Both the position numbers and the translations under genes were made by a program. Shown here in pieces: positions 39,221-64,000 of a stretch of DNA of 64,000 nt (within the stretch, counting starts at the first letter, position 1; each line of letters starts with the position of its first letter). Source of the DNA: an uncultured Clostridia bacterium (lineage in GTDB: Bacteria > Bacillota > Clostridia > Christensenellales > UBA1242); assembly GCA_944372335.1 (NCBI GenBank), contig CALVYQ010000002.1, positions 1,159-65,158 of the forward strand. Reading direction: 5' to 3'. The notes beneath the pieces were generated by a model that made no database searches, was not told where the DNA came from, and saw only the letters and a list, made by a program, of their open reading frames with translations.

Positions 39221-40066
39221 TTAAAATTTTTTTGTGGTCAGTTTATCATATTCTTGTTGCTCTTTTAAAAGCACCACACTCTTTGAGACATCGTAGGTCA
39301 TCTCTTTGTAGGTAAATGATAATACATAGTTTTTCTGCCATACCTGTTCTTTGATGTTTAGGTCATTTTCGTCCTCGCTCTTTGGAAATTCGTGTTTTGT
39401 TTCGTTTAAATCGTAAGTGCCGTCAAAGTCCGTCCAGCCCTCATCACTAAGCCACACCTTTACGCCGATGTTCTTGTAGTCCACCATCTCCACAGCAAAT
39501 ATATTGTCAAGGTCGATTTTTAAGGCACACTTGCCAAGAAACATAAAGATATAGTTGAATTTATAGCAAGGCGTGGCGGACAACACCTTTTTATAGTCGC
39601 TTTCAAGTGGCACCTTTCGTAGCTTTTCTTCAAACTTTTTAAGCGCCTGGCATTTTGCATTGTGCGGTTTAGCCTCAAACTCCGATAGGTCGAAAATTTT
39701 GATATGTTTCTTCAAAAGGTTTAGCGTGTCTTTCGACTGTCCGATATGGTTTGTGTCCACTTTCTTTAAAAGTTCAAAGTTGTCTTCCACAGCGTCTATT
39801 GAGCGAATATTCTCAAAGATTAAACTCTCGCTTGGCTTGTCTTTTTCCTCAATTTGGAGTTTGCTTTCATTTAAGATTTTTTCAAGCTCCTCGCTTCCAA
39901 CCGCCTTGATAATCTTATCAACCTTGGCATTATACTTATCAAAGATAAGCTTTGAGATATATTTTGAAACGCCCTTATTCTTTCTATCACGATAATAAAA
40001 CACAGCAATCACCGCCACAAAGAAAAGGACAATAATAATGGTAAGTATCGTCACCCAGGTTTCCAT
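39221..40066 (-). CDS. Hypothetical N-terminally anchored protein
   Basis: 281 aa. RBS GGAGGGG. One N-terminal TM helix. No motif recognised. Confidence 0.6.
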   Translation of the reverse strand: METWVTILTIIIVLFFVAVIAVFYYRDRKNKGVSKYISKLIFDKYNAKVDKIIKAVGSEELEKILNESKLQIEEKDKPSESLIFENIRSIDAVEDNFELLKKVDTNHIGQSKDTLNLLKKHIKIFDLSEFEAKPHNAKCQALKKFEEKLRKVPLESDYKKVLSATPCYKFNYIFMFLGKCALKIDLDNIFAVEMVDYKNIGVKVWLSDEGWTDFDGTYDLNETKHEFPKSEDENDLNIKEQVWQKNYVLSFTYKEMTYDVSKSVVLLKEQQEYDKLTTKKF

Positions 40067-40227
40067 AACCCCTCCATGCTAAAAGTATATCAAACTTATT
40101 CCCCGTTTTCAAAAGGAATACGCAAAGTTTAATATATTTTTCTCTAACGCCAAAAAATAATGTGCAATTTTTACCCTTTACAACCTTTTTGTTTTTTAAT
40201 ATTTTAAAATACTTTCGGAGGTTGAAA

Positions 40228-40440
40228 ATGAAAACAAAAATAAAAACAAATGGAAGGTATTTTACAAAATTAAGAAAAAAGCAAAATCTAACAATAAAAG
40301 AACTATCATTAAAAACAGGCATTTCGGAGTCAACGCTGACAAACATAGAAAACAACAAAGTCATTCCACGACTACGAACATTACTAAAATTAGTTAAGTT
40401 TTACAACATTACTTTCAAAGAATTGTTTGAGAATTATTAG
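40228..40440 (+). CDS. XRE-family helix-turn-helix regulator
   Basis: 70 aa starting at the ATG at 40228 (RBS GGAGG). LRKKQNLTIKELSLKTGISESTLTNIENNK is a classic Cro/C1 HTH. Confidence 0.8.
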   Translation: MKTKIKTNGRYFTKLRKKQNLTIKELSLKTGISESTLTNIENNKVIPRLRTLLKLVKFYNITFKELFENY

Positions 40441-40468
40441 GCTTTATTTTATTCATCTCTTAAATATA

Positions 40469-41758
40469 TTATAAAAACATAGCCATATATAGTGGCAGTG
40501 TTAGCATATTTCCAACCTGTCCAACATTGCCATAAATTAATTTAATTCCTTGTAAATTAGGATTTATTTTTAATATCGTTGACAATGATTTTGCCTTGCT
40601 ATTATTTGATTTTACTTCAATTGGGATTACTTTTGCATTTTTTGATAAAACAAAATCTATTTCCAGTGTGTTATTTCTATTATAAAAGTATAGTTTATTT
40701 CCATTTGAGTGCAAGATTTGAGCTATGATATTTTCAAAAATTGCACCTTTATAAATTCCAAGATTTCCTTCCATAATTTGAGCATTTGTTCCATCATCTA
40801 GCATAGATATAAGAAGTCCGGTATCTGCCATATAGAGTTTGAAGTAATCTTCTTCTTTATATGCAACCAGTGGAAGGTCAAGGGTTGATACATTATTGCA
40901 AATATTAACTATTCCAGCATCAATTAACCAATTTACACTTCCTAAATATTTTTGACTTTTGCCGTTTTTATCAAAAGTGCTATACATAAACTTTTTATTC
41001 TCTTTTGCAAGTTGTGCTGGTATGCTTTCAAAACAAGCTTTGGCTTTAACTTTTTCTGTTGAAACAGCATACTTTGCAATATCGTTCTTATAATCAATTA
41101 ATATATTTTTTTGTAGATTCAAGACTTCTTCATAGTTGTGATTATTTATAAAAGTATTAACAACATTAGGCATACCACCAACAACAATATATTGTTTAAA
41201 ATATTCTAATAGTTTAAAATTCATTGCTTCATTTACACCACTTTTAGTTTCATAACATTCTTTTATAATTGAGATAACTCTTTCTTCAACACCATTTGCC
41301 CAAAGGAATTCTGTAAACGAAAGAGGATTCATCTCTAAAAATTCAACATAACCAGTCGGATAAGAAGAAACTTGTTCATAATTTATCCCCAAAAGAGAAC
41401 CTGAAGCAATTACATCAAACCTTTTATCAATTGCAAAAAACTTTAATGCCGTTCTTGCATTAGGACAAACTTGAATTTCATCAAAAAAGATGAGAGTTTT
41501 ATTTGGAACTAAATGCGATTGAACATACAAAGACATATTGGCAAGAATAGAATTAATGTCCAAATCGCCCTCAAATATTTTTTTTGCGGTTGGATTTTCC
41601 ACAAAATTAATCTCAATAAAGTTTTCATAATTCTCTTTCGCAAATTTTTCAACAATATATGTTTTACCTACCTGTCTTGCACCACTTATTATTAAACACT
41701 TTTTGTCACTGTTTCTCTTCCATTCTTTTAATTTTTCTTCTATCTCTCTTTTTAGCAT
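40469..41758 (-). CDS. AAA_14 / DUF4143-type ATPase
   Basis: Walker A GARQVGKT, Walker B-like LIFFDEIQ, and a C-terminal region typical of DUF4143 proteins. The ATG at 41758 follows AAGGAG. The gene is visibly more AT-rich than its neighbours. Confidence 0.75.
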   Translation of the reverse strand: MLKREIEEKLKEWKRNSDKKCLIISGARQVGKTYIVEKFAKENYENFIEINFVENPTAKKIFEGDLDINSILANMSLYVQSHLVPNKTLIFFDEIQVCPNARTALKFFAIDKRFDVIASGSLLGINYEQVSSYPTGYVEFLEMNPLSFTEFLWANGVEERVISIIKECYETKSGVNEAMNFKLLEYFKQYIVVGGMPNVVNTFINNHNYEEVLNLQKNILIDYKNDIAKYAVSTEKVKAKACFESIPAQLAKENKKFMYSTFDKNGKSQKYLGSVNWLIDAGIVNICNNVSTLDLPLVAYKEEDYFKLYMADTGLLISMLDDGTNAQIMEGNLGIYKGAIFENIIAQILHSNGNKLYFYNRNNTLEIDFVLSKNAKVIPIEVKSNNSKAKSLSTILKINPNLQGIKLIYGNVGQVGNMLTLPLYMAMFL

Positions 41759-41813
41759 AAACACTCCTTTTATACGAATACTTTATCATAAAACAACAAT
41801 AAAGTCAACCATT

Positions 41814-42653: not shown

Positions 42654-42683
42654 TTGTAAAAAGATAGATTTCTGTGCTATAAT
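42654..42683 (+). promoter_or_regulatory. Probable deoD promoter
   Basis: TTGTAA, 18 nt, then TGcTATAAT (extended -10), about 20 nt before the RBS GGGAGGAGG. Confidence 0.5.
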
Positions 42684-51099: not shown

Positions 51100-52339
51100 C
51101 CCTGCCGACTTCGGTGTTGTCAGTGGTTCTATCTTGAAGAGGCTTGATAGGATTTGGCTTATCTTCCACACGGTAGTCCTTACCGTATCTGTCGATATGC
51201 TCTTCTACCACTTTATGCGAGGCAACGGCTTTTTCATTTTTAATCACCTTTCTTTGATACTTAAAGAAATCAGCGTCATCGGATAAATCATTGATGTTGA
51301 TATAGCCCTCACGATGTGCGGTGTTATTGACGGTGTCCTTTAAGATATTCCTGATATAGTTCTTGTTTGATTTAAAGGAAATGAGTTCTGGAAATTCGCC
51401 GTTTGGAATGACCTCTTGCCACTCTTTCTTTTCATACTTCCTTAAATTCTTTACGGCACTATGAAGGTGAGCTATCTCCTGCTCTAACAGCATTTCCCAA
51501 ACTTTTTTCACGCCCTCATCGCTTTCGTCACAGAGCATGGAGTAGTAGAGATAGCACTCGATATATTCATGCATCAAACACATCTCAAACCAAGATGCCG
51601 AAGGGTCGATGAGTGAGCCATAGTGAGTGACGTGTTGTTCTTCCACCATGGCAATTTCAGTATAGACTTCCCTGCCCTTTTGATTTTTATAGAACGCACC
51701 TAGGTTCATGTAGTAGTTCATCGTTTGTTGCTCGGCAGCGGTGATGATGTTCACGGCGCACTTGTCGAACGGGTCGGCAGTCTTGTTGCATATATGATTT
51801 TTCACACTGTCATAAGGGTGCCTGTGATGAGCAATTGTTGGACGTGCCGGCATGATTTCGGTGTAGTCGCCAACATAGTCCTCAGCATGACAACCCATAT
51901 CACTTTCAAGCATATTTGCATAACGATAAAGGTGGTCGAAGTCCTCTAAGAGTGCAAAATCAAGGGCACTTTTTACATTTTTATCTTTCACGTGCTGAGC
52001 CAAAAATGCCGTCAAATCGACTGCAAGTTGCTCATAGCCGATTGTCGTTTCAAGTTGATTTTCGTCGATTGGCTTTAAGGACGAAATCAATTTTTGTTGT
52101 TGCTGTTCACTGCGTCTGACAAGTGCAAGCGAGCGCTTTAAGTCATTGTCATCTATGTGCCTATGAAAATGATGGCTAAACCACACCGCTTCATACTCGG
52201 TGCCATTCATAAGTATGCAACGAACTCGGGTGTAGGGACTGCTTTCAAGTTTATTATAAGGCTTTCCTGCCAACTTTTTAAAGTCCATCAACGTGCTCTC
52301 TAAACTCTTTGGCTTTTCCAAAAACGGATTAAATTTCAT
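51089..52339 (-). CDS. Ferritin-like (di-iron carboxylate type) protein, function unknown
   Basis: 416 aa from the ATG at 52339 (RBS GGAGG). Paired E-x-x-H motifs (MVEEQHVTHY, LEQEIAHLH) and further helix-borne E/H residues suggest a ferritin-like fold. The 3' end overlaps the convergent XRE gene by 11 nt. Confidence 0.5.
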   Translation of the reverse strand: MKFNPFLEKPKSLESTLMDFKKLAGKPYNKLESSPYTRVRCILMNGTEYEAVWFSHHFHRHIDDNDLKRSLALVRRSEQQQQKLISSLKPIDENQLETTIGYEQLAVDLTAFLAQHVKDKNVKSALDFALLEDFDHLYRYANMLESDMGCHAEDYVGDYTEIMPARPTIAHHRHPYDSVKNHICNKTADPFDKCAVNIITAAEQQTMNYYMNLGAFYKNQKGREVYTEIAMVEEQHVTHYGSLIDPSASWFEMCLMHEYIECYLYYSMLCDESDEGVKKVWEMLLEQEIAHLHSAVKNLRKYEKKEWQEVIPNGEFPELISFKSNKNYIRNILKDTVNNTAHREGYININDLSDDADFFKYQRKVIKNEKAVASHKVVEEHIDRYGKDYRVEDKPNPIKPLQDRTTDNTEVGRVKN

Positions 52340-52397
52340 ATATACCTCCAACTTTTAGTTTTGCCAAATTCACGCCTAAATATTCGCATAAAATCTT

Positions 52398-52527
52398 TGT
52401 GTTACAATCTCAATAAACAAAATCTTTGTTACAACATTAATAGATAAAATTCTGTGTTACAATCTCTTTAAAAAATTTTGTGTTACAATCGTTTTCTAAT
52501 TTATTACCTTTAATTTGTGTTACAAAA
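52398..52527. repeat. Five direct copies of TGTGTTACAA(TC) in the ferritin-like gene's upstream region
   Basis: TGTGTTACAATC at 52398, 52453 and 52479. TGTGTTACAAAA at 52516. Degenerate TTGTTACAAC at 52427. Four copies are preceded by aaaWtyT. Confidence 0.8.
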
Positions 52528-52548
52528 TATATTTCATAATTTATCAAT

Positions 52549-52572
52549 AAAAAATCTCGACCTAAGTCGAGA
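52549..52572 (-). terminator. Intrinsic terminator after the 52608-53909 gene
   Basis: Stem tctcgac / gtcgaga, loop ctaa, then a 6-U run on the minus strand. Confidence 0.85.
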
Positions 52573-52607
52573 AATTTTAATTAAATATCTTCTTTTGCAA
52601 GGAAAGA

Positions 52608-53909
52608 TTAAATTCTGATGTAACGATTTTTCTTTCTAAGATACCAATTCATCAAGGTAAATAATCCTAAAATTGCAAGCACGATAACCACAGCTGCGGC
52701 TGGATGTAGTGATGCTATCTGCGTCTCTAAAAGTCCGCCGAAAAGCATACTAACAACCAACGTCAATATGTAAGTTAAAATGGCGTTGCTTCCCCAAATT
52801 GCGAAGAAGCTGAACTTAGGCTTCCAATTGTTTAAGAAGTTGAGTCCTCCCCAAATCATGGAAGAAATGCTTGCACAGAAGAGTGCATAAACCGGTGTAC
52901 AACCTCTTTTTGCTGCGGTAAAGCCGAAGGCAACAATTAAAACTATGGAGATTAAAAGCATAAGTGAGGACATTATCCAATAACGCTTATCGTCTTTAAG
53001 TTCGGCAAAAACTGAACCTAAAAGAAGTATTCCAGCCCAGCTGAAACCACCAAATATACCTCCTTCCAAAATCTTATTTGCAAGAGGGAAAAGTCCATTT
53101 TGCATCAATACTGTCATAACAACAAAGGTAATTGAAACAATAATCAATCTGCCCCATTTGTCAAACTTAACAAATGGAAGAGCCATGAGTCCAGCAAGGC
53201 CGATGTTTTGGAGAGTGTCCCATTCCCAACCACCGAAACGCTCACCGTCTGCTGGCACTGTGATTTTTTCTGCGGTATTTACTAAGATAAAATATAAAGC
53301 TAAAACGCCTGCTATTGCAAGAAAATAACGGAGCATTGCAGATGATACCTGCTTAAACTTTTCGTTTTTAACTGCAAGACTGATTAAAAAGACAATTAAA
53401 AGGGCTAATGCAATCCAAAACATAACCGCAAAGATTTGAATTTTTATGGAAAGGTCAGCAAATGTCTTTGAACCTGTGAAGATATCTGCCCAACCATTTT
53501 CAAAACCATTGAATAAGATTCCAATTCCAATTAGAGCTAGAAATCTTATGGCAAGTTGCCAATATGCCCTGCGTGTGCCATATTTCCTTTCACGAGATTT
53601 AAAACTTTTGCAGATTGTCAGCCCTATAACAAAGATGAACATAGCCGCAAATAGGTCCGCGAACGAAACTCCCGGCAAAACTTGGAAGCCATCAGCACCA
53701 TGTTCAATGATCGGTGCTAAAAAGTTGAAACATGAGAAGATTGGAAGAATGAAAGAGCATACCATTAAGAACATACAAAGTCCTCTAAATCGGTCGATGG
53801 ATAGCAATCTTTCGCCTTTCTCTGATGTTTCGTCTGCTTTTGCACGATATTCCATTTTATTGTCTTTTAAAACTTCTTCAATTATCACATCACTTTTTTC
53901 TTTTTTCAC
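52608..53909 (-). CDS. Polytopic membrane protein, HGSNAT/DUF1624-DUF5009-like acyltransferase family (paralog 2)
   Basis: N-terminal SIDRFRGLCMFLMV motif followed by about 10 TM helices. Likely GTG start at 53909, 6 nt after AGGAGGG and 13 nt after the upstream stop (the track start at 53966 would overlap the upstream gene). Confidence 0.7.
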   Translation of the reverse strand: MKKEKSDVIIEEVLKDNKMEYRAKADETSEKGERLLSIDRFRGLCMFLMVCSFILPIFSCFNFLAPIIEHGADGFQVLPGVSFADLFAAMFIFVIGLTICKSFKSRERKYGTRRAYWQLAIRFLALIGIGILFNGFENGWADIFTGSKTFADLSIKIQIFAVMFWIALALLIVFLISLAVKNEKFKQVSSAMLRYFLAIAGVLALYFILVNTAEKITVPADGERFGGWEWDTLQNIGLAGLMALPFVKFDKWGRLIIVSITFVVMTVLMQNGLFPLANKILEGGIFGGFSWAGILLLGSVFAELKDDKRYWIMSSLMLLISIVLIVAFGFTAAKRGCTPVYALFCASISSMIWGGLNFLNNWKPKFSFFAIWGSNAILTYILTLVVSMLFGGLLETQIASLHPAAAVVIVLAILGLFTLMNWYLRKKNRYIRI

Positions 53910-53922
53910 TTTTTTCCCTCCT

Positions 53923-55191
53923 TTATAAACTAATTGATTTTTTCTTCCTTGCGAGAAGATATGCAAATGCCGTCAAAAGCACTATTGCCAAAATTCCTTG
54001 AATTCCCGCAAGCCACCAACTAGCGCCCGACAAGGCACTTGCTGGCATAACCGTGGTGTAAACACCGATGACGAAGAATTCCGCTAAGAACATGATGATA
54101 GGATTTTTACCCCACCAAACGAGAAATTCAAATTTCCAAGTTATGTATTTATCAAGATAATCGAATATGAAGAAGATTAATCCGCTTAGCCCAACGCTCA
54201 CCAAGATGAAAGTCGGCGAGCAACTGCCAAGATTAATTACGCCAAGCCACTGTGTCAAGAAAACGCCAAGTGCGCAGAATATGGCGGAAAGCGTGAGAGC
54301 TATATGCTTTTTCTTCATGAAATAGAAATCGGCGATCATCATATCAAATATCAGCATTGCGCCCCAGCCAAAGCCACCTATCGTGCCACCATGCACAATC
54401 ACATCAAGCCACGCCTTGTTGTCGCCTATCTGGTGGAAAACTGAGTATGCGACAAGGATGACAGATGCTCCGATAAGTTTCACCCACCATTTAGATTTAA
54501 CAAACGGAAAGGCAACAAGAATGGCAAAGCCGATTCCTTGCAAGGTCACCCAATAGTTGTATCTAAACGCACTAAAATCATTTTGAATGGCAAAGAAATC
54601 GATTGTTGTGATTATGATGTTCATAATGCCCATGCAAGAAAGTGCCACATAGAAGATGTGTTCTGCTGGCACGGACAATTTTTTCTTCCACGCAGGGATG
54701 AGTGCAAGCAGTCTTAAAACCAAGCCGATAATTGCCACGATGGAGAAAGCAAGCACTGTATAATCAAACGCATTTAAGGTGTAACCGTCCATACTATCCA
54801 AAACTTTGTTGCATAAATCAAGAAAAGTTCCAAGCCCAACAATGGAAAGAGCACGCTCTAAGTAGTGGATAATTGCGTGCTTTGTGCCATACAATCTTTG
54901 CCACTTGGTGAAAGACAGTGTAAAGGTTAAGCCGATTGCAAAGATAAATGCTGGAGCAATAATGTCTGCAAGCGTCATACCCGGCAAGATGATTATGCCT
55001 TTTGACAGCGAATGGTCAGCAAGCCTAGACAAAATTCCAAGACTAGGAAAGTTTTTTAAAAATTGAAAGATTAGCATACAAAAGACGCAAAATCCGCGAA
55101 ATCTGTCTATGCTTTTTATACGCTTACTTTCTTTTGCATCAATAGGAAGCATTGTATCTTTTTTAATAATCGCTTCTTCAACTTTTTCCAT
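53923..55191 (-). CDS. Polytopic membrane protein, HGSNAT/DUF1624-DUF5009-like acyltransferase family (paralog 1)
   Basis: 422 aa. SIDRFRGFCVFCML motif and a TM architecture parallel to the downstream paralog. The ATG lies 2 nt after the ligase stop. Confidence 0.7.
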   Translation of the reverse strand: MEKVEEAIIKKDTMLPIDAKESKRIKSIDRFRGFCVFCMLIFQFLKNFPSLGILSRLADHSLSKGIIILPGMTLADIIAPAFIFAIGLTFTLSFTKWQRLYGTKHAIIHYLERALSIVGLGTFLDLCNKVLDSMDGYTLNAFDYTVLAFSIVAIIGLVLRLLALIPAWKKKLSVPAEHIFYVALSCMGIMNIIITTIDFFAIQNDFSAFRYNYWVTLQGIGFAILVAFPFVKSKWWVKLIGASVILVAYSVFHQIGDNKAWLDVIVHGGTIGGFGWGAMLIFDMMIADFYFMKKKHIALTLSAIFCALGVFLTQWLGVINLGSCSPTFILVSVGLSGLIFFIFDYLDKYITWKFEFLVWWGKNPIIMFLAEFFVIGVYTTVMPASALSGASWWLAGIQGILAIVLLTAFAYLLARKKKSISL

Positions 55192-55193
55192 AT

Positions 55194-56789
55194 TTACCTC
55201 TGTTCTAACTCAAATTTTTTAAAATCAATCTTTCCAAAGTTCGTTCTCGGCATAGCATCAATTATTTCAATAAGACGAGGAACCGAATATTTAATCAAAT
55301 TCTTTTTGCAAAGAGAAAGAATCTCTTTTTTCGCTCTTTCTTCCGCAACTTCCTTATCTTTTAAAGTTATGTAAAGTTTGATGTAAGTCTTTTCATTGTA
55401 GTGATATGGCACTGCACACGCTTCATCAATATATTCAAGTTTTTTAACCAAGTTTTCTATCTCAGAAGGAAAGACATTTATGGCATTTATCTTAATGGAA
55501 CGCTTGCGTCTATCAAGTATGTAAAGATAGCCATCTTCGTCCATATAGCCCATATCACCTGTCTTGACCCACTTTATCCCCTCTTTATGCACAAAGCCGT
55601 TTACTTCGTTTAGATAGCCCTTCATAACAGACGGCGAACCCACCGCAATCTCTCCAATTGTATTTGGCGAAAGTGGATTGTTTTCCTCGTCCCAAATCTC
55701 AATCTTGGTGTAAGGAATAGCTTTGCCACAACTATACGGCCTATAATGTTCAAAGGTATTTGCTGCACACACGCTGGAAACTTCCGTAAGCCCATAGCCT
55801 CTAAACAAGCGTGCTGAACTTTTGTATTTTTTTAGTATTGTGTCGAAGTGTTCCACAAAGGACTCAGTTAAAACGTCGCCACCGCACCATAAGTCTTTCA
55901 GTTTTGCAAGATGTTTGCCGTAGAAATTTTTGTATTCAATCATCTTCTTGAACATGACAGGCACGCCAGCAAAAAAGGTGACATTATACATTTTAATGAT
56001 AGCGTTAAACTTTTTCGGCTTAAAGTTTGGCACAAGAATTAAACTATATTGATTGGTCAAACAGGTATGTACAGACACGCCCAAGCCATAAGCATGAAAT
56101 ATCGGCAAAGCAACGAGCGAATACTCACTGCCACCACCACGGATTTTACGTGTGTACATCTTCTCAAGAGACACACTTAAATCGTTGAGAGCGTTATTTT
56201 GAAGTTCAATAATCTTTGGCTGTCCGCTTGTTCCACCGCTGTGCATGGTGCAGACAACGTCACTGCCTTTCCCCTCCACCTCTGTCAGAGTGGCATTTTT
56301 ATTGTGCTTAATAAGCTTAGAATATTTTATCGCCTTTTTATAGGTTCGACATTTATATATTACAAACAACAAAAAAAGAACCTTCCTCAATATCACATAG
56401 TTTGATATCGAACAATTAATCAAAATTTGATTTAGAGAAGCAAGATCCTTATGATTTCTTATCAAGATATCATAATACATCAAGCCTTTCGATTTTGTCT
56501 GTTTTAAATTTTCTCTCAGTTGGTCGAGTGGCAAAAGAGGGTGAACAATATTTGCCACAACACCAAGTTTCGAGCAAGCATAAAAAGCCACAAGTGCTTG
56601 TGGACAGGTTGGAAGATAGATTGTTAGCACGTCACCCTTTTTAAAGCCCAATTTTTTTAAAGATATAGCAAAATCTTCAATATTTTTCAAAAAAGTTTTC
56701 ATGGATATTTTGTGGTCGTTGAAAATGATATTACCTTTCTTCATATCAACACCCTCTTTTAGCACTTCATAACAGGTTTTATTTTCCAC
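55194..56789 (-). CDS. AMP-dependent synthetase/ligase (acyl-CoA/acyl-AMP forming, ANL superfamily)
   Basis: 531 aa. GTG start behind AAGGAG. Motifs TMHSGGTSGQPK, GYGLTE, TGDMGYMDEDGYLYILDRRKRSIK and a C-terminal GKID. Confidence 0.88.
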   Translation of the reverse strand: MENKTCYEVLKEGVDMKKGNIIFNDHKISMKTFLKNIEDFAISLKKLGFKKGDVLTIYLPTCPQALVAFYACSKLGVVANIVHPLLPLDQLRENLKQTKSKGLMYYDILIRNHKDLASLNQILINCSISNYVILRKVLFLLFVIYKCRTYKKAIKYSKLIKHNKNATLTEVEGKGSDVVCTMHSGGTSGQPKIIELQNNALNDLSVSLEKMYTRKIRGGGSEYSLVALPIFHAYGLGVSVHTCLTNQYSLILVPNFKPKKFNAIIKMYNVTFFAGVPVMFKKMIEYKNFYGKHLAKLKDLWCGGDVLTESFVEHFDTILKKYKSSARLFRGYGLTEVSSVCAANTFEHYRPYSCGKAIPYTKIEIWDEENNPLSPNTIGEIAVGSPSVMKGYLNEVNGFVHKEGIKWVKTGDMGYMDEDGYLYILDRRKRSIKINAINVFPSEIENLVKKLEYIDEACAVPYHYNEKTYIKLYITLKDKEVAEERAKKEILSLCKKNLIKYSVPRLIEIIDAMPRTNFGKIDFKKFELEQR

Positions 56790-57008
56790 AAAAACTCCTT
56801 TGTAACTCTCAATAACATGACTAGTTTAACACATTTTATATAAAATACAAAATGATATTAAAAATTTTTTAAATAATTTTTTAAAATGTATTTTTGCACA
56901 AATTTTTAAAATAAATTTTTTTTGAAATTAAAGAATAAACTTTTTTTCTTTATTTTGTTTTTATGGAGAATTTTGCTATAATTATTTTGAGTTTAAAAGG
57001 AGGTTAAA

Positions 57009-58280
57009 ATGAAACTTACTAAGGAAGAACAGGCTATTCTTTCTGGAAGTGAAGGGCAAACAAAAGCTAAAATTATGCAAACTCTTGTTGAATTTGGCGA
57101 GCTCTTTGGTGCGACTGAATTTGTGCCTGTTTCTACATGCGGACACTTGGTCACTTCGTTTGGTATCGGACTTTTAAAGCCGGTATATCGCATTATGGAC
57201 GAAATAATAGAAGCTGGACTTAAAACGCCGTATCCATTCACAGTTGATCCACGCCCGATTGACTATAAAAATGTTAAATGCAATATCTTGGACAAGCTTA
57301 TCTTTTCAAAAATTATGTATTCAAAACAAAAGCACTATGAGGAGCAACTTTCAAAGATTGGGCTAAAAAACAAAAACGCCTTCACTTGCACCTGCTATCT
57401 TGAAGAAGTTGGCAACACTCCAAAGTATGGAGATATCCTCTCTTGGGCTGAAAGTTCAGCCGTTGTCTTTGCTAATTCTGTGCTTGGGGCAAGATGTAAT
57501 CGTAACAGCGGAATGTTGGATATCTTTGGAGCAATCTTAGGCAAAGTGCCAAAGTTTGGCTTACTTACCGATGACGGAAGAAAGGCTGATTACATAGTGG
57601 AGATAAAAACATCTCATCTACCTGAGGCACAAATACTTGGTTCGGCTATCGGCATGAGAGTTATGGAAAAAGTGCCTTACGTTGTCGGCTTAGACAAATT
57701 TTTAGGTACAGAGCTTAATGATGACACCATATCATATTTAAAAGATTTTGGAGCAGCCACCGCCTCTAATGGTGCAGTAGGGCTATACCATATCGACAAT
57801 CTAACTCCAGAAGCTAAAAAGTATGGCAAAAAGCTATGGCGTGAAAATGCAGAAAAGTATGTGATTGATGATGCGGAGCTTGAAAGAGTATATAAGAGCT
57901 ATCCAATCATGTGGAAGAAAGAAGATGCAAAACCTTCGCTATGCTTCATCGGCTGTCCTCACCTTTCTTTCAGCCAGCTTAAAAATTGGACTGATAAGAT
58001 AGGAGAAAACCTTAAAAAGAGTGGAAGGAAAAAGGTTAAAGTGCGTACAATCATGACTTGTGCCCCAGATGTAGCTGATAAGTTTAAAAAGACGCCTGAT
58101 TACAAAAAGCTTACAAGCTACGGTGTGAAACTATCGTCTATCTGCCCTCTTATGTACACCAACAATCCTATTGCTGGCAGTAAGCCGATAATCACAAACA
58201 GTAATAAACTTAGAACCTACTCAAAGGCAAGATACTATAAAGATGATGATATCGTAAAAATTATTTGCGAGGTGAAATAG
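57009..58280 (+). CDS. Aconitase X catalytic (large) subunit, DUF521
   Basis: 423 aa. MKLTKEEQAILSGSEGQTKAKIMQTLVEFGELFGA is the typical DUF521 N-terminus. RBS AGGAGG. Confidence 0.8.
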   Translation: MKLTKEEQAILSGSEGQTKAKIMQTLVEFGELFGATEFVPVSTCGHLVTSFGIGLLKPVYRIMDEIIEAGLKTPYPFTVDPRPIDYKNVKCNILDKLIFSKIMYSKQKHYEEQLSKIGLKNKNAFTCTCYLEEVGNTPKYGDILSWAESSAVVFANSVLGARCNRNSGMLDIFGAILGKVPKFGLLTDDGRKADYIVEIKTSHLPEAQILGSAIGMRVMEKVPYVVGLDKFLGTELNDDTISYLKDFGAATASNGAVGLYHIDNLTPEAKKYGKKLWRENAEKYVIDDAELERVYKSYPIMWKKEDAKPSLCFIGCPHLSFSQLKNWTDKIGENLKKSGRKKVKVRTIMTCAPDVADKFKKTPDYKKLTSYGVKLSSICPLMYTNNPIAGSKPIITNSNKLRTYSKARYYKDDDIVKIICEVK

Positions 58281-58281
58281 T

Positions 58282-58731
58282 ATGGAAAAGAAAATATTTA
58301 AAGGCAGAGTTATCTGCAAAGGAAACTATGAAGGAGAATGCGTGGTATCCCGACAGGGACTTAACACCCTTGCTACCTTTCAAAAATCCGCCCTTATGAA
58401 CAAGAAAAAAGTTATCGGCTCTGACCAAAATAATCCTGATGTATTTGGAAAAAATTTGACAGGCGTGGCACTTATTCTTCCTCAGACTATTGGCTCGACA
58501 ACTGGCGGACTTGTCATTCAAACAATTTGTCAGATGAAGATAAATCCGTCCGCCCTCTTGTTTAGCGAAGAGATTGACAGCCTTGCAGCAAGCGGTGTAA
58601 TCTTGGCAAAAAACTGGGAAAACTCCGATATAATCGCCATTGATAAACTTGGAAACGACATTCTTTCAGAGATTAAAACGGGAGATAAAATAAAAATAAG
58701 CGAAGACGGAACTGTCGAAGTTATCAAGTAA
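58282..58731 (+). CDS. Aconitase X swivel (small) subunit, DUF126
   Basis: 149 aa immediately after the large subunit (1-nt gap). GRVICKGNYEGECVVS ... LILPQTIGSTTGG resembles DUF126. Confidence 0.75.
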   Translation: MEKKIFKGRVICKGNYEGECVVSRQGLNTLATFQKSALMNKKKVIGSDQNNPDVFGKNLTGVALILPQTIGSTTGGLVIQTICQMKINPSALLFSEEIDSLAASGVILAKNWENSDIIAIDKLGNDILSEIKTGDKIKISEDGTVEVIK

Positions 58732-58799
58732 TTAATTTTTTAAATATCATAAGTTTTGCAATAATATATTAAAATAGAAGCGTTTTATTAGGAGAAATT

Positions 58800-59354
58800 A
58801 TGAAGAAGAATATAAAAACAACAGAAGCAATCTTTCCAATGCCAGTGCTTATGATTGCCACATACAACGAGGACGGCACGGTTGATGTTATGAACGCCGC
58901 TTGGGGAATGATGTATGACAGAAATCAAGTTGTATTAAGTTTAACCGAATCTCATAAGACGGTTAAAAACATTAAAAAGAGAAAAGCGTTTACGGTCAGC
59001 ATAGCAGACACAAAGCATGTTGCTGAGGCGGACTACTTTGGCATAGTTTCAGCCAACACCACAAAAGATAAATTTGAGAAGAGCGGACTTACTGCCACAA
59101 AATCTAAAAATGTCGATGCGCCAATCATAAACGAATTTCCAATTTGCATGGAGTGCGAATTTGTAGAAATAAACGATGCAGGAGTTATTGGAGAAGTCGT
59201 CAATGTTTCTGCCGAGGAAAGTGTGCTTGCTGGTGACAATGTGGATATCTCGAAAGTCAACGCCGTTGCCTTTGACCCATACACGCATGGCTACTACAAA
59301 GTCACCGAAAGAGTTGGCGACGCATGGAAATCAGGCTTGAAGTTTAAGAAATAA
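58800..59354 (+). CDS. Flavin reductase-like (FMN-binding split-barrel) protein
   Basis: 184 aa. PMPVLMIATYNEDGTVDVMNAAWG is typical of the flavin reductase domain family. Confidence 0.78.
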   Translation: MKKNIKTTEAIFPMPVLMIATYNEDGTVDVMNAAWGMMYDRNQVVLSLTESHKTVKNIKKRKAFTVSIADTKHVAEADYFGIVSANTTKDKFEKSGLTATKSKNVDAPIINEFPICMECEFVEINDAGVIGEVVNVSAEESVLAGDNVDISKVNAVAFDPYTHGYYKVTERVGDAWKSGLKFKK

Positions 59355-59381
59355 TATAATTTTAATTTTTATACAAATAAA

Positions 59382-59410
59382 AAAGAACTCTAAGTTTAAG
59401 GGTTCTTTTT
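59382..59410 (+). terminator. Probable terminator after the flavin reductase gene
   Basis: Stem aaagaac / gttcttt with a 13-nt loop, then a T-run. Confidence 0.5.
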
Positions 59411-59433
59411 TATAGATTTAAATTATTTGAAAA

Positions 59434-60015
59434 TTAATTACTTTTACAAATTCTAAGTTCTCTTTTTATATCATAGTTATTTTCAATATATCTTTTCTTT
59501 CTTGTTCCGGGCTGAATATTGTAGGCAAAAAGGGCAATCAAATACAAAACAATGCTACATAAATCACACGCCATATTGACGTAACCTTGGATAGTGAAAT
59601 TATAAGCACACCAAAGAAGAGAGTTTGCGATCAGCGATATTCTAATAAACACCATATTTTTAAATATCAAGCAAAAGGTCAGTATGAACATAGCAACAAC
59701 AAGAAGAATCGTTGTGGCATCTTCCCAAAAAAATATAACAGAGACGGCAAATATTACATTTATCAAACAAAACGGCAAAAAATAGTGCGTGAGCTTTGCT
59801 TTCCTTTCATCTAAAAACATATACCATACCGCCCGTATTAAAAGAAGAATTTGCATGATGGCAGGAAGATAGCTTCCGAGAAAGAAGTATGATAAAGAAT
59901 AAAAGGCTGAACTTATTGCCATAAAAGTTAGAAGTAAATTCTTGTACTTCATCACCTTTCCGACAAGGTCAATTATCATACCAACGCCGACTGAGATTTG
60001 AGATAAAATATACAT
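59434..60015 (-). CDS. Polytopic membrane protein (possibly YgjV-like)
   Basis: 193 aa, 5-6 hydrophobic helices. No obvious RBS. Family assignment is tentative. Confidence 0.5.
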   Translation of the reverse strand: MYILSQISVGVGMIIDLVGKVMKYKNLLLTFMAISSAFYSLSYFFLGSYLPAIMQILLLIRAVWYMFLDERKAKLTHYFLPFCLINVIFAVSVIFFWEDATTILLVVAMFILTFCLIFKNMVFIRISLIANSLLWCAYNFTIQGYVNMACDLCSIVLYLIALFAYNIQPGTRKKRYIENNYDIKRELRICKSN

Positions 60016-60030
60016 AAACTAATTATATAT

Positions 60031-60054
60031 AAAAAATCACACTTTGGCAAGTGT
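60031..60054 (-). terminator. Intrinsic terminator downstream of the interrupted lipoprotein gene
   Basis: Stem acactt / aagtgt, loop tggc, then a 6-U run on the minus strand. Confidence 0.65.
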
Positions 60055-60174
60055 AATTTATTTATATTTTAATATATTATTTTGTCCTAATCACGAAGTA
60101 TCATAAAAAATCTATGTTTAACTAAATTATGCCGACACAATTTACTATTTTTTGAGTCAAAAGAATTTTACATC

Positions 60175-60492
60175 TCATAGTTTAATTATTTTTATACAAA
60201 ATGCACATATTTTATTACCCTCTTCATAATAACCACTAACACATAAATTATATGATATATCGGTAATTGTAAAAGCTTCAATATTTGAAAAATCACAGTC
60301 AAAAAAATAAAGATCATTTGTTTGCAAGAGAGATTTTGCCTTAGAAATAGCTTCTTACTTACTACATATTGTTTTCTGATAACTAATTCTAGATGATGCA
60401 GAATCACATCCAGCAAGAAAAATTAATGGGATAGCCAAAATCACCAATAAAAAGCAAAGTGAAAATATCAATTTCTTTTTAATCTTCCCCAT
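60175..60492 (-). pseudogene. Small lipoprotein gene interrupted by one in-frame TAA
   Basis: Not in the ORF track. RBS AGGAGA, then ATG at 60492: MGKIKKKLIFSLCFLLVILAIPLIFLAGCDSASSRISYQKTICSK. TAA at 60355-60357. The same frame then stays open for 59 more codons (EAISKAKSLLQTNDLYFFDCDF...CAFCIKIIKL) to the TGA at 60175-60177. Confidence 0.55.
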
Positions 60493-60697
60493 TTTAATTC
60501 TCCTTATATTTTAAAATAAAGCCCAAATCAAACCATGCTGTCGATTTAGGCTTAAATTGGCGGCACCAACACTATCCAGATTGAACTAAAAGTTGATGGA
60601 TTTAAAATATTTTTATTTATAAGAAACAAAGATTAAAAATGTTTTGGTAATAAAATGCAAATATAGTATACTGAAATAAATAGTTAGAAAACGGAGA

Positions 60698-61267
60698 TTG
60701 AAAAGATATATGGTTATTAATATTATTAATATTATAGCAATAATTGTTATACCAATAGTTTCAGTTATAATAGGACAATATTTACAAAACAGAAGTGAGA
60801 AGAGAAAAGATAAAATGAGAGTTTTTACTCATTTAATGTCATATAGGTATTTTGGTTATACTGACCAAGTTTCTGTTAATGTATTAAATTCGGTCCCATT
60901 TGTTTTTAATGATAATGAAGATGTAATAGAAAAATATAATATTTACATAAAGTCGTTAAATTGTCGACCAGAAGAAATTGAAATAAAAAGTAAAGAAATT
61001 AATGATAATAAAACGAAAATGTTGGAAGAAATGGCAAAGGCTTTAAAATACAAAAATATTAATTGGGAGATAATACAAAACCCATATCTTCCTGAAGGAC
61101 TGATAAATCAAATACATCAAGAAAATATTTTTAGGCAAGGGCAAGTAGAAATTGCGAAGGCATTAACGCAAAGAACAAATTCATCTGAAGAAAAAATTAG
61201 TATATTAAAAAAAATAGGAGAAGAAATAGAAAATAAAATAAAAAAACAAAAAAGTAATAAAAGGTAA
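60698..61267 (+). CDS. Hypothetical N-terminally anchored protein
   Basis: 189-aa ORF (TTG at 60698 or ATG at 60710). One N-terminal TM helix and a K/E-rich C-terminus. It has its own terminator. Confidence 0.55.
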   Translation: MKRYMVINIINIIAIIVIPIVSVIIGQYLQNRSEKRKDKMRVFTHLMSYRYFGYTDQVSVNVLNSVPFVFNDNEDVIEKYNIYIKSLNCRPEEIEIKSKEINDNKTKMLEEMAKALKYKNINWEIIQNPYLPEGLINQIHQENIFRQGQVEIAKALTQRTNSSEEKISILKKIGEEIENKIKKQKSNKR

Positions 61268-61290
61268 GTTGTTTTCTGACTTACTTTTTT
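61264..61290 (+). terminator. Intrinsic terminator separating the 189-aa gene from hamAB
   Basis: Stem gtaagt / acttac, 9-nt loop, then TTTTTT. Confidence 0.75.
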
Positions 61291-61412
61291 GTTTACAAAA
61301 TTATTAGTTTAAGTGTAAACAATAATATTTTTTATCAAATAAATAGCTTTTATTTATAAAAATATAGAATTTTAATAATTGTGTGGTATAATGATGTAAA
61401 AAAGGAGAAAGA

Positions 61413-62315
61413 ATGATTAATACATCAATAGATAAAGAATTTACTCAATGTTTTGATGAATTATATAATGATACTATAGAAAAAAATAATATAAAGTTTT
61501 TTTGCCCACTTATAGATTCAAATGAATTTGAATATGAATTTATGATTAAAAAGTTATTGCTGTATGCTCCATATTATTGTTTATCACGTGCAACACTTGA
61601 AGAAAATCTCAATCAACATTTGCTTTTGTCTCAATTAACAAGAGATAAATTTAGAGAATTTGACAAAAATGAAGGAGAATTGGCTGAATTTATAGGATAT
61701 AGTTTTTTAGAAAGTGATTTAGGTGCCCCAAAAATAATATCCAAAATGGAACTTAAAACTGATAATAATATGTATTTTAATGGGGCGGATGGTGTTCATT
61801 TTTTAAAAAAAGATTGTGGGTATCAATTAATATTTGTAGAAGCGAAAACGTATGATGATTTATATAACGGTATATGGAACGCTATTGATAGTATTGATAA
61901 ATTTAAAAACAACTCAATAAAAGATGAGAAAGATGGTAAACTAAAAGGAATAAAGTTTGAAAAATCTTTAATTTCAGCTAATATAACAAAAGAGGTGTTT
62001 TCAAAAGAAGATGAACAATTCATAAAGGACATACTATATCCTAAAAGAAATGGAATAGGACCTGTTGATACAGCGTTTTCAGTTATTATACTTTATGAAC
62101 CTCAATTAGATAAAAGTCTAAAAAATTTACCTAATCTTGAGTATAGAGAAAAAGTCCATGAAATTTTAAAGAATCAAATAATTGACCAAACAGAAAATAT
62201 AAAATCTTTAATAAAAAAGCACAATCTTAATGGTCATAATTTTTATTTTTATATAGTGCCTATGGATAACTTATATAATACAAAACATGCTGTTCTTAAA
62301 GAGGTTTTAAGATGA
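61413..62315 (+). CDS. hamA: HamA-like protein (DUF1837-type, D...ExK nuclease-fold motifs) of a Hachiman-type defence system
   Basis: 300 aa. RBS AAGGAGA. GELAEF (aa 88-93), GADGVH (aa 124-129) and FVEAK (aa 141-145). The stop overlaps the helicase start (ATGA). An extended -10 TGgTATAAT lies at 61384-61392. Confidence 0.7.
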   Translation: MINTSIDKEFTQCFDELYNDTIEKNNIKFFCPLIDSNEFEYEFMIKKLLLYAPYYCLSRATLEENLNQHLLLSQLTRDKFREFDKNEGELAEFIGYSFLESDLGAPKIISKMELKTDNNMYFNGADGVHFLKKDCGYQLIFVEAKTYDDLYNGIWNAIDSIDKFKNNSIKDEKDGKLKGIKFEKSLISANITKEVFSKEDEQFIKDILYPKRNGIGPVDTAFSVIILYEPQLDKSLKNLPNLEYREKVHEILKNQIIDQTENIKSLIKKHNLNGHNFYFYIVPMDNLYNTKHAVLKEVLR

Positions 62316-64000
62316 GTTATAATATTATTGAAGATATGGCAAGAGAAGCTCTTAACGACGAGTATTTTATTGAATTATTTACTAAATTGGAAAACAATTT
62401 TTTTAATAAAATTGTTTACAAAAAAAATGAGTGTAAATTGAATGATTTGGAATGTTATGACCTGCTGTCCTTTGCAGATATATTATCATTGTCGATAATA
62501 GATGAAAATAAAAATATTTCCATAAAAATAATTAGCTTACTAAATGTATTTTTCAAAAATAATGCTCTTTATAATTATTATGCTAAGGGGATTATGCTGA
62601 GATTAGGCAATTTCCCAAGTTATGAATTAATATCTAAAAATACAAACATTGTTTGGGGAAAAGAACCTATGGATATTGTTGTCGAAAAGATGTTGAAACA
62701 ATCAAGAAACAAAGACCCAAACAATAGTGAAAAAATATTTACAGATTCTCAACTTGAAGTATACAACAATTTAATAAACAAGAATCATTTCAGTTTTTCT
62801 GGCCCAACTTCTTTTGGAAAATCATTTATATTAAATTCTTTTATAAGTCATATTATCAATTCCAATAATAATGGAATTAATATGGCATATATTGTTCCTA
62901 CTAGAGCTTTGATTTCTCAAAACATTAAGGTTTTAAAGGAAATTATAAAGGATAAACATAATTATATTTTGTTAGAAAGTCCAGATATTCCATCATGTTT
63001 TTTAAACAAAAATAAAAATTTTATTTTTGTTTTTACACCTGAACGTTTGGTTTCATATTTATCAAGCGAAAATAATCCGACTTTAGGTTACATTTTTGTT
63101 GACGAAGCTCAAAAAATGTTGGCTATAGATTCGCGTTCTGCTATATATTATCATGCGTTAAGTATGGCAGAAAGAAAAAGTTGTAAATTATTTTTTTCAT
63201 CACCAAACATTAATAATGCTAATATTTTTTTAAGTATATTTGATAAGTCTGAAGATGAAAGTTTACGTATAACAGAATCTCCAGTTTGTCAAAATAGATG
63301 TTTTATAGATATTGAAAATAGAAAATTGCAATATTTTTCCAATGTGACTGAGCCAAAGGAGTTAGAGTATAATTTGCCAAATAATATAGAAGATATTATA
63401 TTACAAATATCAAATGAAGGAACTTCAGTTAATAAAAGTATTGTTTATTGTAATACAATTGAAGATACTATTAATTTGGCATTAAGTTTTTCTAAGAAAT
63501 GCAAGAGTAAAGATAATGAAAAAATCAATAGTGCTATAAAAGTAATCAAAGAACACATTCATGAAGATTATTTTTTAATAGATTGTATCAAAAACGGAGT
63601 AGCATTTCATTTCGGCAAATTACCACAGAGAATAAGAAATCTTATAGAAACTATGTATATTGAAGGTGATATTGATTATTTATTTTGTACTTCAACATTA
63701 TTAGAAGGAGTAAACTTACCTGCTCAAAATATTTACATATTGAGTAGTAAAATTGGCAATACGCGGTTAACATCTGTTGATTTTTGGAATTTGGCTGGTA
63801 GAGCTGGTCGTTTAGCAAAGGATTTGTATGGAAATGTTTTTTGTATTAGATGGGGGAATATAGATGGTCATTGGAATAAGGAAAAAGATATAGAATTGTT
63901 AAAAAATAAAAAAGTTGAAGATGTTAAATCTCCGTTATTAACAGGTGAATCTAACTTTTATAAAAATGTCAGAGCATCCTTATTGAATAGACCGTTTACT
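62312..64000 (+). CDS. hamB: HamB-like SF2 (DExD/H-type) helicase, 5' partial (runs off the window)
   Basis: My own translation. The frame from the ATG at 62312 stays open for all 563 codons to position 64000. Motif I GPTSFGKS (aa 164-171), motif II VDEAQ (aa 263-267), then TSTLLEGVNLPA and AGRAGR near the window end. Confidence 0.75.
   Translation, partial: MSYNIIEDMAREALNDEYFIELFTKLENNFFNKIVYKKNECKLNDLECYDLLSFADILSLSIIDENKNISIKIISLLNVFFKNNALYNYYAKGIMLRLGNFPSYELISKNTNIVWGKEPMDIVVEKMLKQSRNKDPNNSEKIFTDSQLEVYNNLINKNHFSFSGPTSFGKSFILNSFISHIINSNNNGINMAYIVPTRALISQNIKVLKEIIKDKHNYILLESPDIPSCFLNKNKNFIFVFTPERLVSYLSSENNPTLGYIFVDEAQKMLAIDSRSAIYYHALSMAERKSCKLFFSSPNINNANIFLSIFDKSEDESLRITESPVCQNRCFIDIENRKLQYFSNVTEPKELEYNLPNNIEDIILQISNEGTSVNKSIVYCNTIEDTINLALSFSKKCKSKDNEKINSAIKVIKEHIHEDYFLIDCIKNGVAFHFGKLPQRIRNLIETMYIEGDIDYLFCTSTLLEGVNLPAQNIYILSSKIGNTRLTSVDFWNLAGRAGRLAKDLYGNVFCIRWGNIDGHWNKEKDIELLKNKKVEDVKSPLLTGESNFYKNVRASLLNRPFT

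Follow-up and report, generated by a model that had tools for sequence, protein, structure and literature searches.

Hachiman systems of type I-A are widespread and already understood both mechanistically and structurally. We analyzed a stretch of 64,000 nucleotides from an uncultured Clostridia bacterium (GenBank assembly GCA_944372335.1, contig CALVYQ010000002.1, positions 1,159 to 65,158 of the forward strand; hereafter the window, to which all coordinates refer unless another contig is named), at the right edge of which two genes, hamA and hamB, very probably constitute a translationally coupled Hachiman anti-phage system of type I, subtype I-A (Cui et al. 2025), working by the mechanism proposed below and residing in an integrative defence cassette. 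The hamAB system itself is conventional, and standard tools such as PADLOC and Pfam would call the locus. Its value is that of a divergent Clostridial representative of an uncultured human-gut lineage, with DEAQ as helicase motif II and a HamB of 857 amino acids (aa), whereas its carrier provides a cleanly delimited example of defence systems moving between gut Clostridia.

According to the account given in PMC11914072, the founding member of the family is the Hachiman system of Bacillus cereus B4087 (Doron et al. 2018, as cited there), a two-gene Firmicutes system of a DUF1837 protein plus a helicase that defines the family architecture, and it is by architecture alone that we liken our locus to it. 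The type I-A HamAB systems of Escherichia coli ECOR31 (PDB 8VX9/8VXY; Tuck et al. 2024, PMC12278908) and DEC14B (PMC11914072) are two-gene operons, as is the one studied here. In ECOR31, the N-terminal region of HamB is a helical bundle that binds HamA, 3′ single-stranded DNA (ssDNA) triggers ATPase activity and DNA clearance, and the substitutions E138A/K140A and D431A abolish defence (PMC12278908); in DEC14B, E150A/K152A abolish both nuclease activity and defence (PMC11914072). Our locus shares with these systems a short, DUF1837-only HamA with an intact ExK site and a Ski2/Hel308-like HamB with a predicted N-terminal HamA-binding region, and the predicted fold of its HamA matches 8vx9_A, from ECOR31, best. 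It differs from both in its host, an uncultured Clostridia bacterium with ~36% GC, and from ECOR31 in the length of HamB (857 aa vs 1174 aa for 8vx9_B) and in motif II, which reads DEAQ here and DEGH there.

Two other described complexes are relevant. AbpAB, the Hachiman system of type I-B in E. coli K-12 (PDB 8ZUE; PMC11914072, PMC10732053), is a pair of HamA-like and HamB-like proteins activated by DNA damage, and its chain 8zue_A is the third structural match of our HamA model; however, AbpA carries an N-terminal Cap4 nuclease and a catalytically dead DUF1837, whereas our HamA is not fused and has an intact site. PDB entries 9wh1/9whk/9whu combine a 528-aa chain A, named “HamA C-terminal domain-containing protein”, with an 853-aa helicase chain B deposited as “Pol theta helicase domain”. 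Chain B is the closest solved relative of our HamB and the DUF1837 of chain A matches the HamA profile (E=6e-25), but this HamA has a ~240-aa N-terminal extension and its DUF1837 aligns without the D and ExK residues, on which grounds the complex would belong to a fused-effector subtype and not to I-A. These entries evidently represent a Hachiman variant under the misleading molecule name “DNA polymerase theta (helicase domain only)”; a literature search on PDB 9WH1 returned unrelated papers only.

The hamAB gene pair

The gene pair and the signals preceding it are as follows.

61413–62315, + strand: hamA, encoding a 300-aa DUF1837-only nuclease of the PD-(D/E)xK type, with the predicted catalytic residues D126, E143 and K145 intact
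62312–64000, + strand: hamB, first 563 of 857 codons, encoding a Ski2/Hel308-like superfamily 2 helicase with the HamB-specific N-terminal region, RecA1 and RecA2
61384–61392, + strand: extended −10-like element TGGTATAAT, 21 nt before the hamA ATG, with no good −35; read from the sequence
61403–61407, + strand: Shine-Dalgarno sequence AGGAG, 5 nt before the hamA ATG; read from the sequence
61259–61290, + strand: weak A/U-rich hairpin followed by T6, after the stop codon of a DUF6680 gene; possible weak terminator between this gene and hamA

An earlier sequence-only reading of this DNA had picked out the 300-aa open reading frame (ORF) at 61413–62315 for its segments GELAEF (residues 88–93), GADGVH (124–129) and FVEAK (141–145), followed through an ATGA overlap by an ORF that does not terminate in the window and carries the helicase motifs GPTSFGKS (164–171), VDEAQ (263–267) and AGRAGR (495–500); we find all of these elements in place. 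The TGA of hamA (62313–62315) overlaps the ATG of hamB (62312–62314) in a 4-bp ATGA (62312–62315, read from the sequence), and the hamB frame remains open through base 64000, leaving 563 codons within the window. hamB is missing from the ORF list because the ORF tool omits ORFs that run off the source. The two genes are adjacent, on the same strand and in one operon, which is the arrangement of type I Hachiman. The same reading had noted that the locus is more AT-rich than its flanks, in agreement with a GC content of 24–26% across 60–64 kb vs 33–41% for most of the window; measured directly, GC is 25.1% for 60557–64000 and 36.4% for 1–59400.

It is plausible that hamA transcription starts from a putative extended −10 promoter, with a short leader. 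The window has 12 copies of the motif TGNTATAAT, an enrichment over the 5.0±2.2 expected, and two copies other than that before hamA, at 42675 and 56974 (+ strand), lie 22–27 nt upstream of start codons. Its occurrence 21–27 nt before three starts (42675, 56974, 61384) suggests that extended −10 promoters with short leaders are common in this organism. The two-hexamer promoter scan does not report the TGGTATAAT element. As for the terminator that had been proposed to insulate the locus from the upstream gene, a hairpin followed by T6 does exist (core GGUAAGU/ACUUAC, 61263–61284; −9.7 kcal/mol, z=−2.1), with much of the energy of the 61259–61290 structure coming from pairing of its A-run with its T-run; however, the consensus terminator scan reported no terminator anywhere in 60000–64000, and because of this we downgraded the hairpin to, at best, a weak terminator.

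The HamA nuclease

The HamA sequence matches Pfam PF08878 (HamA, formerly DUF1837) with E=7e-42 and 144 bits (cut-off 25 bits) over profile positions 5–230 of 230, and PADLOC model HamA1 (PDLC00156) with E=1.2e-80 from residue 2 to 299, that is, end to end, so that the DUF1837 identity read from the motifs holds; no additional domain was found in its 300 aa by the Pfam search. The D...ExK triad proposed at the same time is equally well sustained: an alignment of 26 homologues, reaching down to 29% identity, shows no variation at D126, E143 and K145, nor at E89, E92, E100, K107, K111, E113, K115 and H129. Structure prediction, which had been suggested for the pair, was run for HamA and gave an AlphaFold2 model with a pLDDT of 90.2, where D126 heads strand 127–133 and E143 and K145 sit on strand 136–147. 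In this model, the placement of the three residues on adjacent beta strands is the PD-(D/E)xK arrangement. The top three Foldseek matches of the model in PDB are all HamA chains (8vx9_A, 8vxy_A and 8zue_A, probability 1.00 each, TM 0.5–0.6). By sequence, a single-sequence search of PDB with HamA gave no match and a profile search gave 9wh1_A only, even at E≤10. Because PDB gave no sequence alignment with ECOR31 HamA, equivalence with ECOR31 was drawn from the motif, its secondary-structure placement and the fold; on these grounds E143/K145 would be the counterparts of ECOR31 E138/K140, a correspondence of motif and fold rather than of superposed residues.

The HamB helicase

The partial HamB encoded in the window matches PADLOC model HamB1 (PDLC00176) with E=1.3e-201 and 670 bits over model positions 2–556 of 845, and contains DEAD, ResIII and Helicase_C domains (Pfam). 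Some 160 N-terminal residues had been left as unassigned. This description does not hold, since the alignment with HamB1 starts at residue 4 and the N-terminal ~160 aa are thus specific to the HamB family. In PDB, 9wh1_B matches over residues 12–523 (E=9e-72), 8vx9_B on RecA2 only (E=9e-9), and 8zue_B matches as well. Across 65 homologues, conservation covers the helicase motifs Q, I (Walker A, GPTSFGKS), Ia, II, V and VI (AGRAGR); motif II is DEAQ in 59 and DEAH in the other 6.

The remainder of the gene was examined in contig L101 (ENA ERZ24773321, BRZ_ET NODE_51, 237 kb), which we used as the continuation of the window because it is 100% identical to positions 52312–64000 over 11,689 bp. 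In contigs 100% identical to the window tail, full-length HamB has 857 aa and would end at window-equivalent position 64885. The exact HamA sequence is found on 31 contigs and the exact 857-aa HamB on 10.

System type and proposed mechanism

Matches to PF08878, HamA1 and HamB1 together with an intact triad establish the locus as a Hachiman pair of DUF1837 protein and helicase, as the sequence-only reading had proposed, and the best PADLOC matches of both proteins are type I models. That reading had left room for further partner genes downstream, which did not materialize: in L101, hamB is followed by an independent type II restriction–modification (R-M) system, and HamC models detect no HamC (DUF3223) among the genes after hamB, namely a C5 methyltransferase (MTase), a restriction endonuclease (REase), a 96-aa ORF and a second C5 MTase. 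Subtype I-A follows, in the scheme of PMC11914072, from the absence of HamC combined with a short, catalytically intact HamA. Type II Hachiman was rejected for want of HamC, and type I-B (AbpAB) since there is no N-terminal fusion and the catalytic site of HamA is intact.

We infer the formation of a HamA–HamB complex, its trigger and the defence phenotype by analogy with the characterized type I-A systems (PMC12278908, PMC11914072). hamA and hamB are translationally coupled via the ATGA overlap and are probably transcribed from their own extended −10 promoter. The two proteins would form a heterodimer in which the N-terminal helical region of HamB clamps HamA, keeping it inactive while the complex rides intact double-stranded DNA. 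Phage replication or DNA damage would generate free 3′ ssDNA ends; such an end, upon entering the helicase channel of HamB, would promote an ATP hydrolysis that ratchets HamB, and HamA would then be released or activated. Active HamA would degrade DNA indiscriminately, that of the phage and that of the host, thereby aborting the infection.

Several observations weigh against this explanation. The sequences are very distant from those of ECOR31: HamA has no sequence match with it in PDB, HamB matches 8vx9_B on RecA2 only, and the structural alignment of our HamA with ECOR31 HamA has ~14% identity. Because sequence identity is so low, the trigger and other details could differ from those of ECOR31. 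Motif II is DEAQ and not DEAH or DEGH. The similarity of HamB taken by itself leaves the effector type open, because the partner of 9wh1_B is a long HamA without catalytic residues. In addition, the window holds two thirds of hamB, its C-terminal 294 aa being seen solely in contigs of identical context, and one assembly (L006, 10900–13473) has a hamB that differs only in being broken into two ORFs, of 667 and 161 aa, through either true inactivation or faulty assembly.

Carrier element

The sequence-only reading had also considered the locus a horizontally acquired islet, which was right yet understated, since hamAB lies inside a delimited 12.4-kb integrative element. Its extent and left boundary are as follows.

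60557–64000 in the window, continuing to window-equivalent ~72991, + strand: integrative defence cassette, 12,435 bp (L101 8246–20680)
60557–60586, strand not applicable: attL, core TTGGCGG then conserved arm CACCAACACTATCCAGATTGAAC
60520–60556, − strand: host-flank inverted repeat AAGCCCAAATC...GATTTAGGCTT, just outside the left end; hairpin and T-rich tail after the tRNA-end core

The cassette has 27.3% GC and extends about 9 kb past the window, with hamAB near its left end. Homology among five unrelated left-flank contexts starts exactly at 60557, with TTGGCGG followed by CACCAACACTATCCAGATTGAAC, and the same end motif is found in all carriers. At the right end, homology stops at TTCAAACGACAATTGTTTGGCGG, within the last codons of a recombinase gene, and the reverse complement of a tRNA gene comes directly after. 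The right junction in L101, TTTGGCGG followed by AGAGTTAGGGATTCGAACC, corresponds to the CCA end of tRNA-Ser(TGA) (L101 20674–20761), and the 7-bp core TTGGCGG is repeated there as the complement of the tRNA-Ser 3′ end CCGCCAA (CC-G-CCA-A). No tRNA was detected by a scan of the window, the target tRNA lying beyond it, in L101. ARAGORN identified a tRNA-Ser gene (GCT, TGA, GGA or CGA) at the right boundary in at least 13 genome loci. Elements of 3.8, 5.6, 11.0 and 11.65 kb have these ends too and enclose other cargo, and sibling elements can form tandem arrays at a single tRNA-Ser site. A helicase-type restriction module with a C5 MTase belongs to the cargo of one sibling; at another locus, a second element stands in tandem before tRNA-Ser(GCT), equipped with a recombinase of its own, an AbiL/AriA-like ATPase and a type II R-M system.

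The recombinase (L101 19082–20875; 19216–20820 in a second contig, L001) has Resolvase, Recombinase and Zn-ribbon domains (Pfam) and matches the phrog_95 integrase with E=3e-120; its best NCBIfam match is CcrB (E=4e-44), at 151 bits far under the cut-off of 900. Its ORF crosses attR and continues antisense into the tRNA gene, with products of 534 and 597 aa in two different contexts; because it reads across attR, its C-terminal tail varies with the integration site. Many metagenome contigs are interrupted within the gene, in line with its being a multi-copy repeat. Conserved ends, variable cargo and unrelated flanks identify the element, by its sequence, as a large-serine-recombinase integrative element of predicted mobility, and the predicted activity of the CcrB-like recombinase is to move the cassette into the CCA end of tRNA-Ser genes. 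The predicted circular junction of the excised cassette is CAATTGTTTGGCGG joined to CACCAACACTATCC, and the predicted empty-site junction is GGCTTAAATTGGCGG joined to AGAGTTAGGGATTCG. A look-up of the flanking Imp-YgjV protein in search of an empty integration site gave solely island-bearing or truncated contigs, and JGI metagenomes, scanned for exact matches to the left-junction pattern, yielded none. The inverted repeat at 60520–60556 is probably the displaced terminator of the tRNA-Ser gene; a similar sequence flanks the element in another context (L007).

Among known carriers, and for the carrier only, the element resembles SCC-type cassettes with Ccr recombinases (PMC11470126): CcrB is the best match of its recombinase, it is small and non-conjugative, it uses the 3′ end of a conserved gene as its insertion site, forms tandem arrays and has defence cargo. 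It differs from them in that low CcrB score and in having a single recombinase gene, in targeting the CCA end of tRNA-Ser genes instead of rlmH, and in its gut Clostridia hosts. A prophage was rejected despite a cI/Cro-like pair of helix-turn-helix (HTH) genes and an integrase, as there are no structural or replication genes and the 12.4 kb hold defence genes. The hosts of the element are uncultured Clostridia and Christensenella-like metagenome-assembled genomes, mostly labelled only as uncultured Clostridia or Christensenella sp., and a few sample names (sheep colon, faecal) suggest a gut origin.

Cargo and exchangeable slots

The gene order of the cassette is DUF6680, hamAB, type II R-M, small ORFs, AbiZ-like DUF6161, two HTH genes and the large serine recombinase, followed by tRNA-Ser(UGA). 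The first cargo gene and the position of a variable slot in related contigs are as follows.

60698–61267, + strand: DUF6680 gene, ORF from TTG 60698; ATG 60710 and 185 aa according to gene callers; first cargo gene
Variable slot: L003 18226–19455; L001 18101–18688; L002 18096–19052; L004 18022–19023; L098 10012–10809

In L101, the genes after hamB are a C5 MTase, a 263-aa REase (PADLOC REase_II, E=5e-57), the 96-aa ORF and the second C5 MTase on the opposite strand; further on come ORFs of 160 and 64 aa, a 409-aa DUF6161/AbiZ-like gene, the two small HTH genes and the recombinase. The type II R-M module occupies L101 12675–15702 (window-equivalent ~64986–68013), with the C5 MTases on opposite strands flanking the REase and the 96-aa ORF, a layout suggestive of an asymmetric recognition site whose two strands are each served by one methylase. 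The variable slot accommodates one gene beside the cI-like HTH gene in otherwise near-identical cassettes, which may be a DUF6161/AbiZ-like, a metallophosphatase, a 318-aa, an AbiTi-like or a Ymh-family gene.

The DUF6680 protein matches Pfam PF20385 (E=5e-35) and has an N-terminal hydrophobic helix, and we found no match for it in PADLOC, PHROGs, NCBIfam, phage records, plasmid records or the searchable literature. We treat it as independent cargo, probably outside the Hachiman system, because an SduA_C gene fills its slot in a sibling element and distant HamAB pairs are found without DUF6680; it is a candidate for an undescribed defence-associated gene.

On a broader and more tentative interpretation, which we think possible but on balance somewhat doubtful, the cassette would belong to a family of SCC-like defence shuttles: non-conjugative cassettes of 3.8–12.4 kb in uncultured gut Clostridia, with conserved ends and a CcrB-like recombinase, inserting at the CCA ends of several tRNA-Ser isoacceptor genes, stacking in tandem and swapping their cargo, with at least two variable slots holding Hachiman, Shedu, R-M, AbiZ-, AbiT- and AbiL-like genes. 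If this were true, DUF6680, which yields its slot to Shedu in the sibling, would count as a defence or counter-defence gene not yet described. No description of a tRNA-Ser-targeted defence cassette was found in the literature searched, in a search that was not exhaustive. The exchangeable slots could be a source of new defence genes, candidates being DUF6680 and the ORFs of 96, 160 and 64 aa, and the short, well-defined attachment sites might interest recombinase engineers.

Alternative explanations

The RecA domains of HamB resemble those of Hel308, Brr2, Ski2 and the Pol theta helicase, and the pair might thus consist of a housekeeping repair helicase of Ski2/Hel308/RecQ type with an unrelated neighbour, without any defence system. 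The family scores already refute this: the Hel308 equivalogs reach 44–60 bits against cut-offs of 887–1216 (59.9 bits vs 1200 for NF040935; 60.3 bits vs 887 for NF002654), whereas HamB1 scores 670 bits. Moreover, its partner is a full-length HamA with intact triad, and both genes lie in a mobile AT-rich cassette, in the company of R-M and Abi-like genes. That the locus is a decayed, non-functional copy seems very improbable. The hamB gene is indeed split in one assembly (L006) and its 3′ third lies outside the window, but the exact HamA recurs on 31 contigs and the exact 857-aa HamB on 10, a contig 100% identical to the window tail has an intact hamB, and all catalytic motifs of HamA and HamB are intact.

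Two further possibilities accept a working HamAB and differ from a self-contained anti-phage pair in its partners or its beneficiary. The DUF6680 membrane protein could partner HamAB as regulator, sensor or second effector in a three-gene, extended Hachiman system, in parallel to the PezAT- or AbiJ-extended Hachiman of Streptococcus; extended operons with upstream accessory genes are documented (PMC13064477), the DUF6680 gene lies directly upstream of hamA, on the same strand and 145 bp away, in every copy of the element, and the hairpin between them is only weak. However, all these co-occurrences come from near-identical copies of one element and therefore count as one observation. A sibling element whose HamA is 83% identical has an opposite-strand SduA_C (Shedu) gene in the DUF6680 slot, no DUF6680 gene adjoins the HamAB pairs with 61% and 47% identity, hamA is preceded by a promoter-like element and a ribosome-binding site of its own, and DUF6680 matches no PADLOC model, all of which makes such a partnership quite improbable. 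It is also unlikely, though a little less so, that hamAB mainly serves the cassette itself, by addiction or by excluding competing mobile DNA, with phage defence as a by-product. In favour of this idea, hamAB always travels with a type II R-M system inside the recombinase-bounded element, which the R-M module may likewise stabilize, the tandem arrangement of siblings at one tRNA-Ser site points to competition or accretion, and Hachiman responds to DNA damage generally, beyond phage (PMC12278908). Characterized Hachiman systems, on the other hand, protect against phages when placed alone on a plasmid (PMC12278908, PMC11914072), and the present data have no direct bearing on element stability. 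In any case, a role in the service of the cassette is a difference of emphasis, compatible with an anti-phage HamAB of subtype I-A, which remains our preferred explanation.

Other features of the window

Two observations concern the surroundings of the cassette. Between the cassette and the Imp-YgjV gene, where the host flank is AT-rich, an ORF with a lipoprotein-like signal peptide (MGKIKKKLIFSLCFLLVILAIPLIFLAGC...; 60170–60500, − strand) is apparently broken by a stop codon or a frameshift. Farther away, a second low-GC patch (28–31% GC) at 39221–41764 (− strand) encodes an AAA_14/DUF4143 ATPase of 431 aa and holds ORFs of 281 and 125 aa without Pfam match; it may be another small acquired island.

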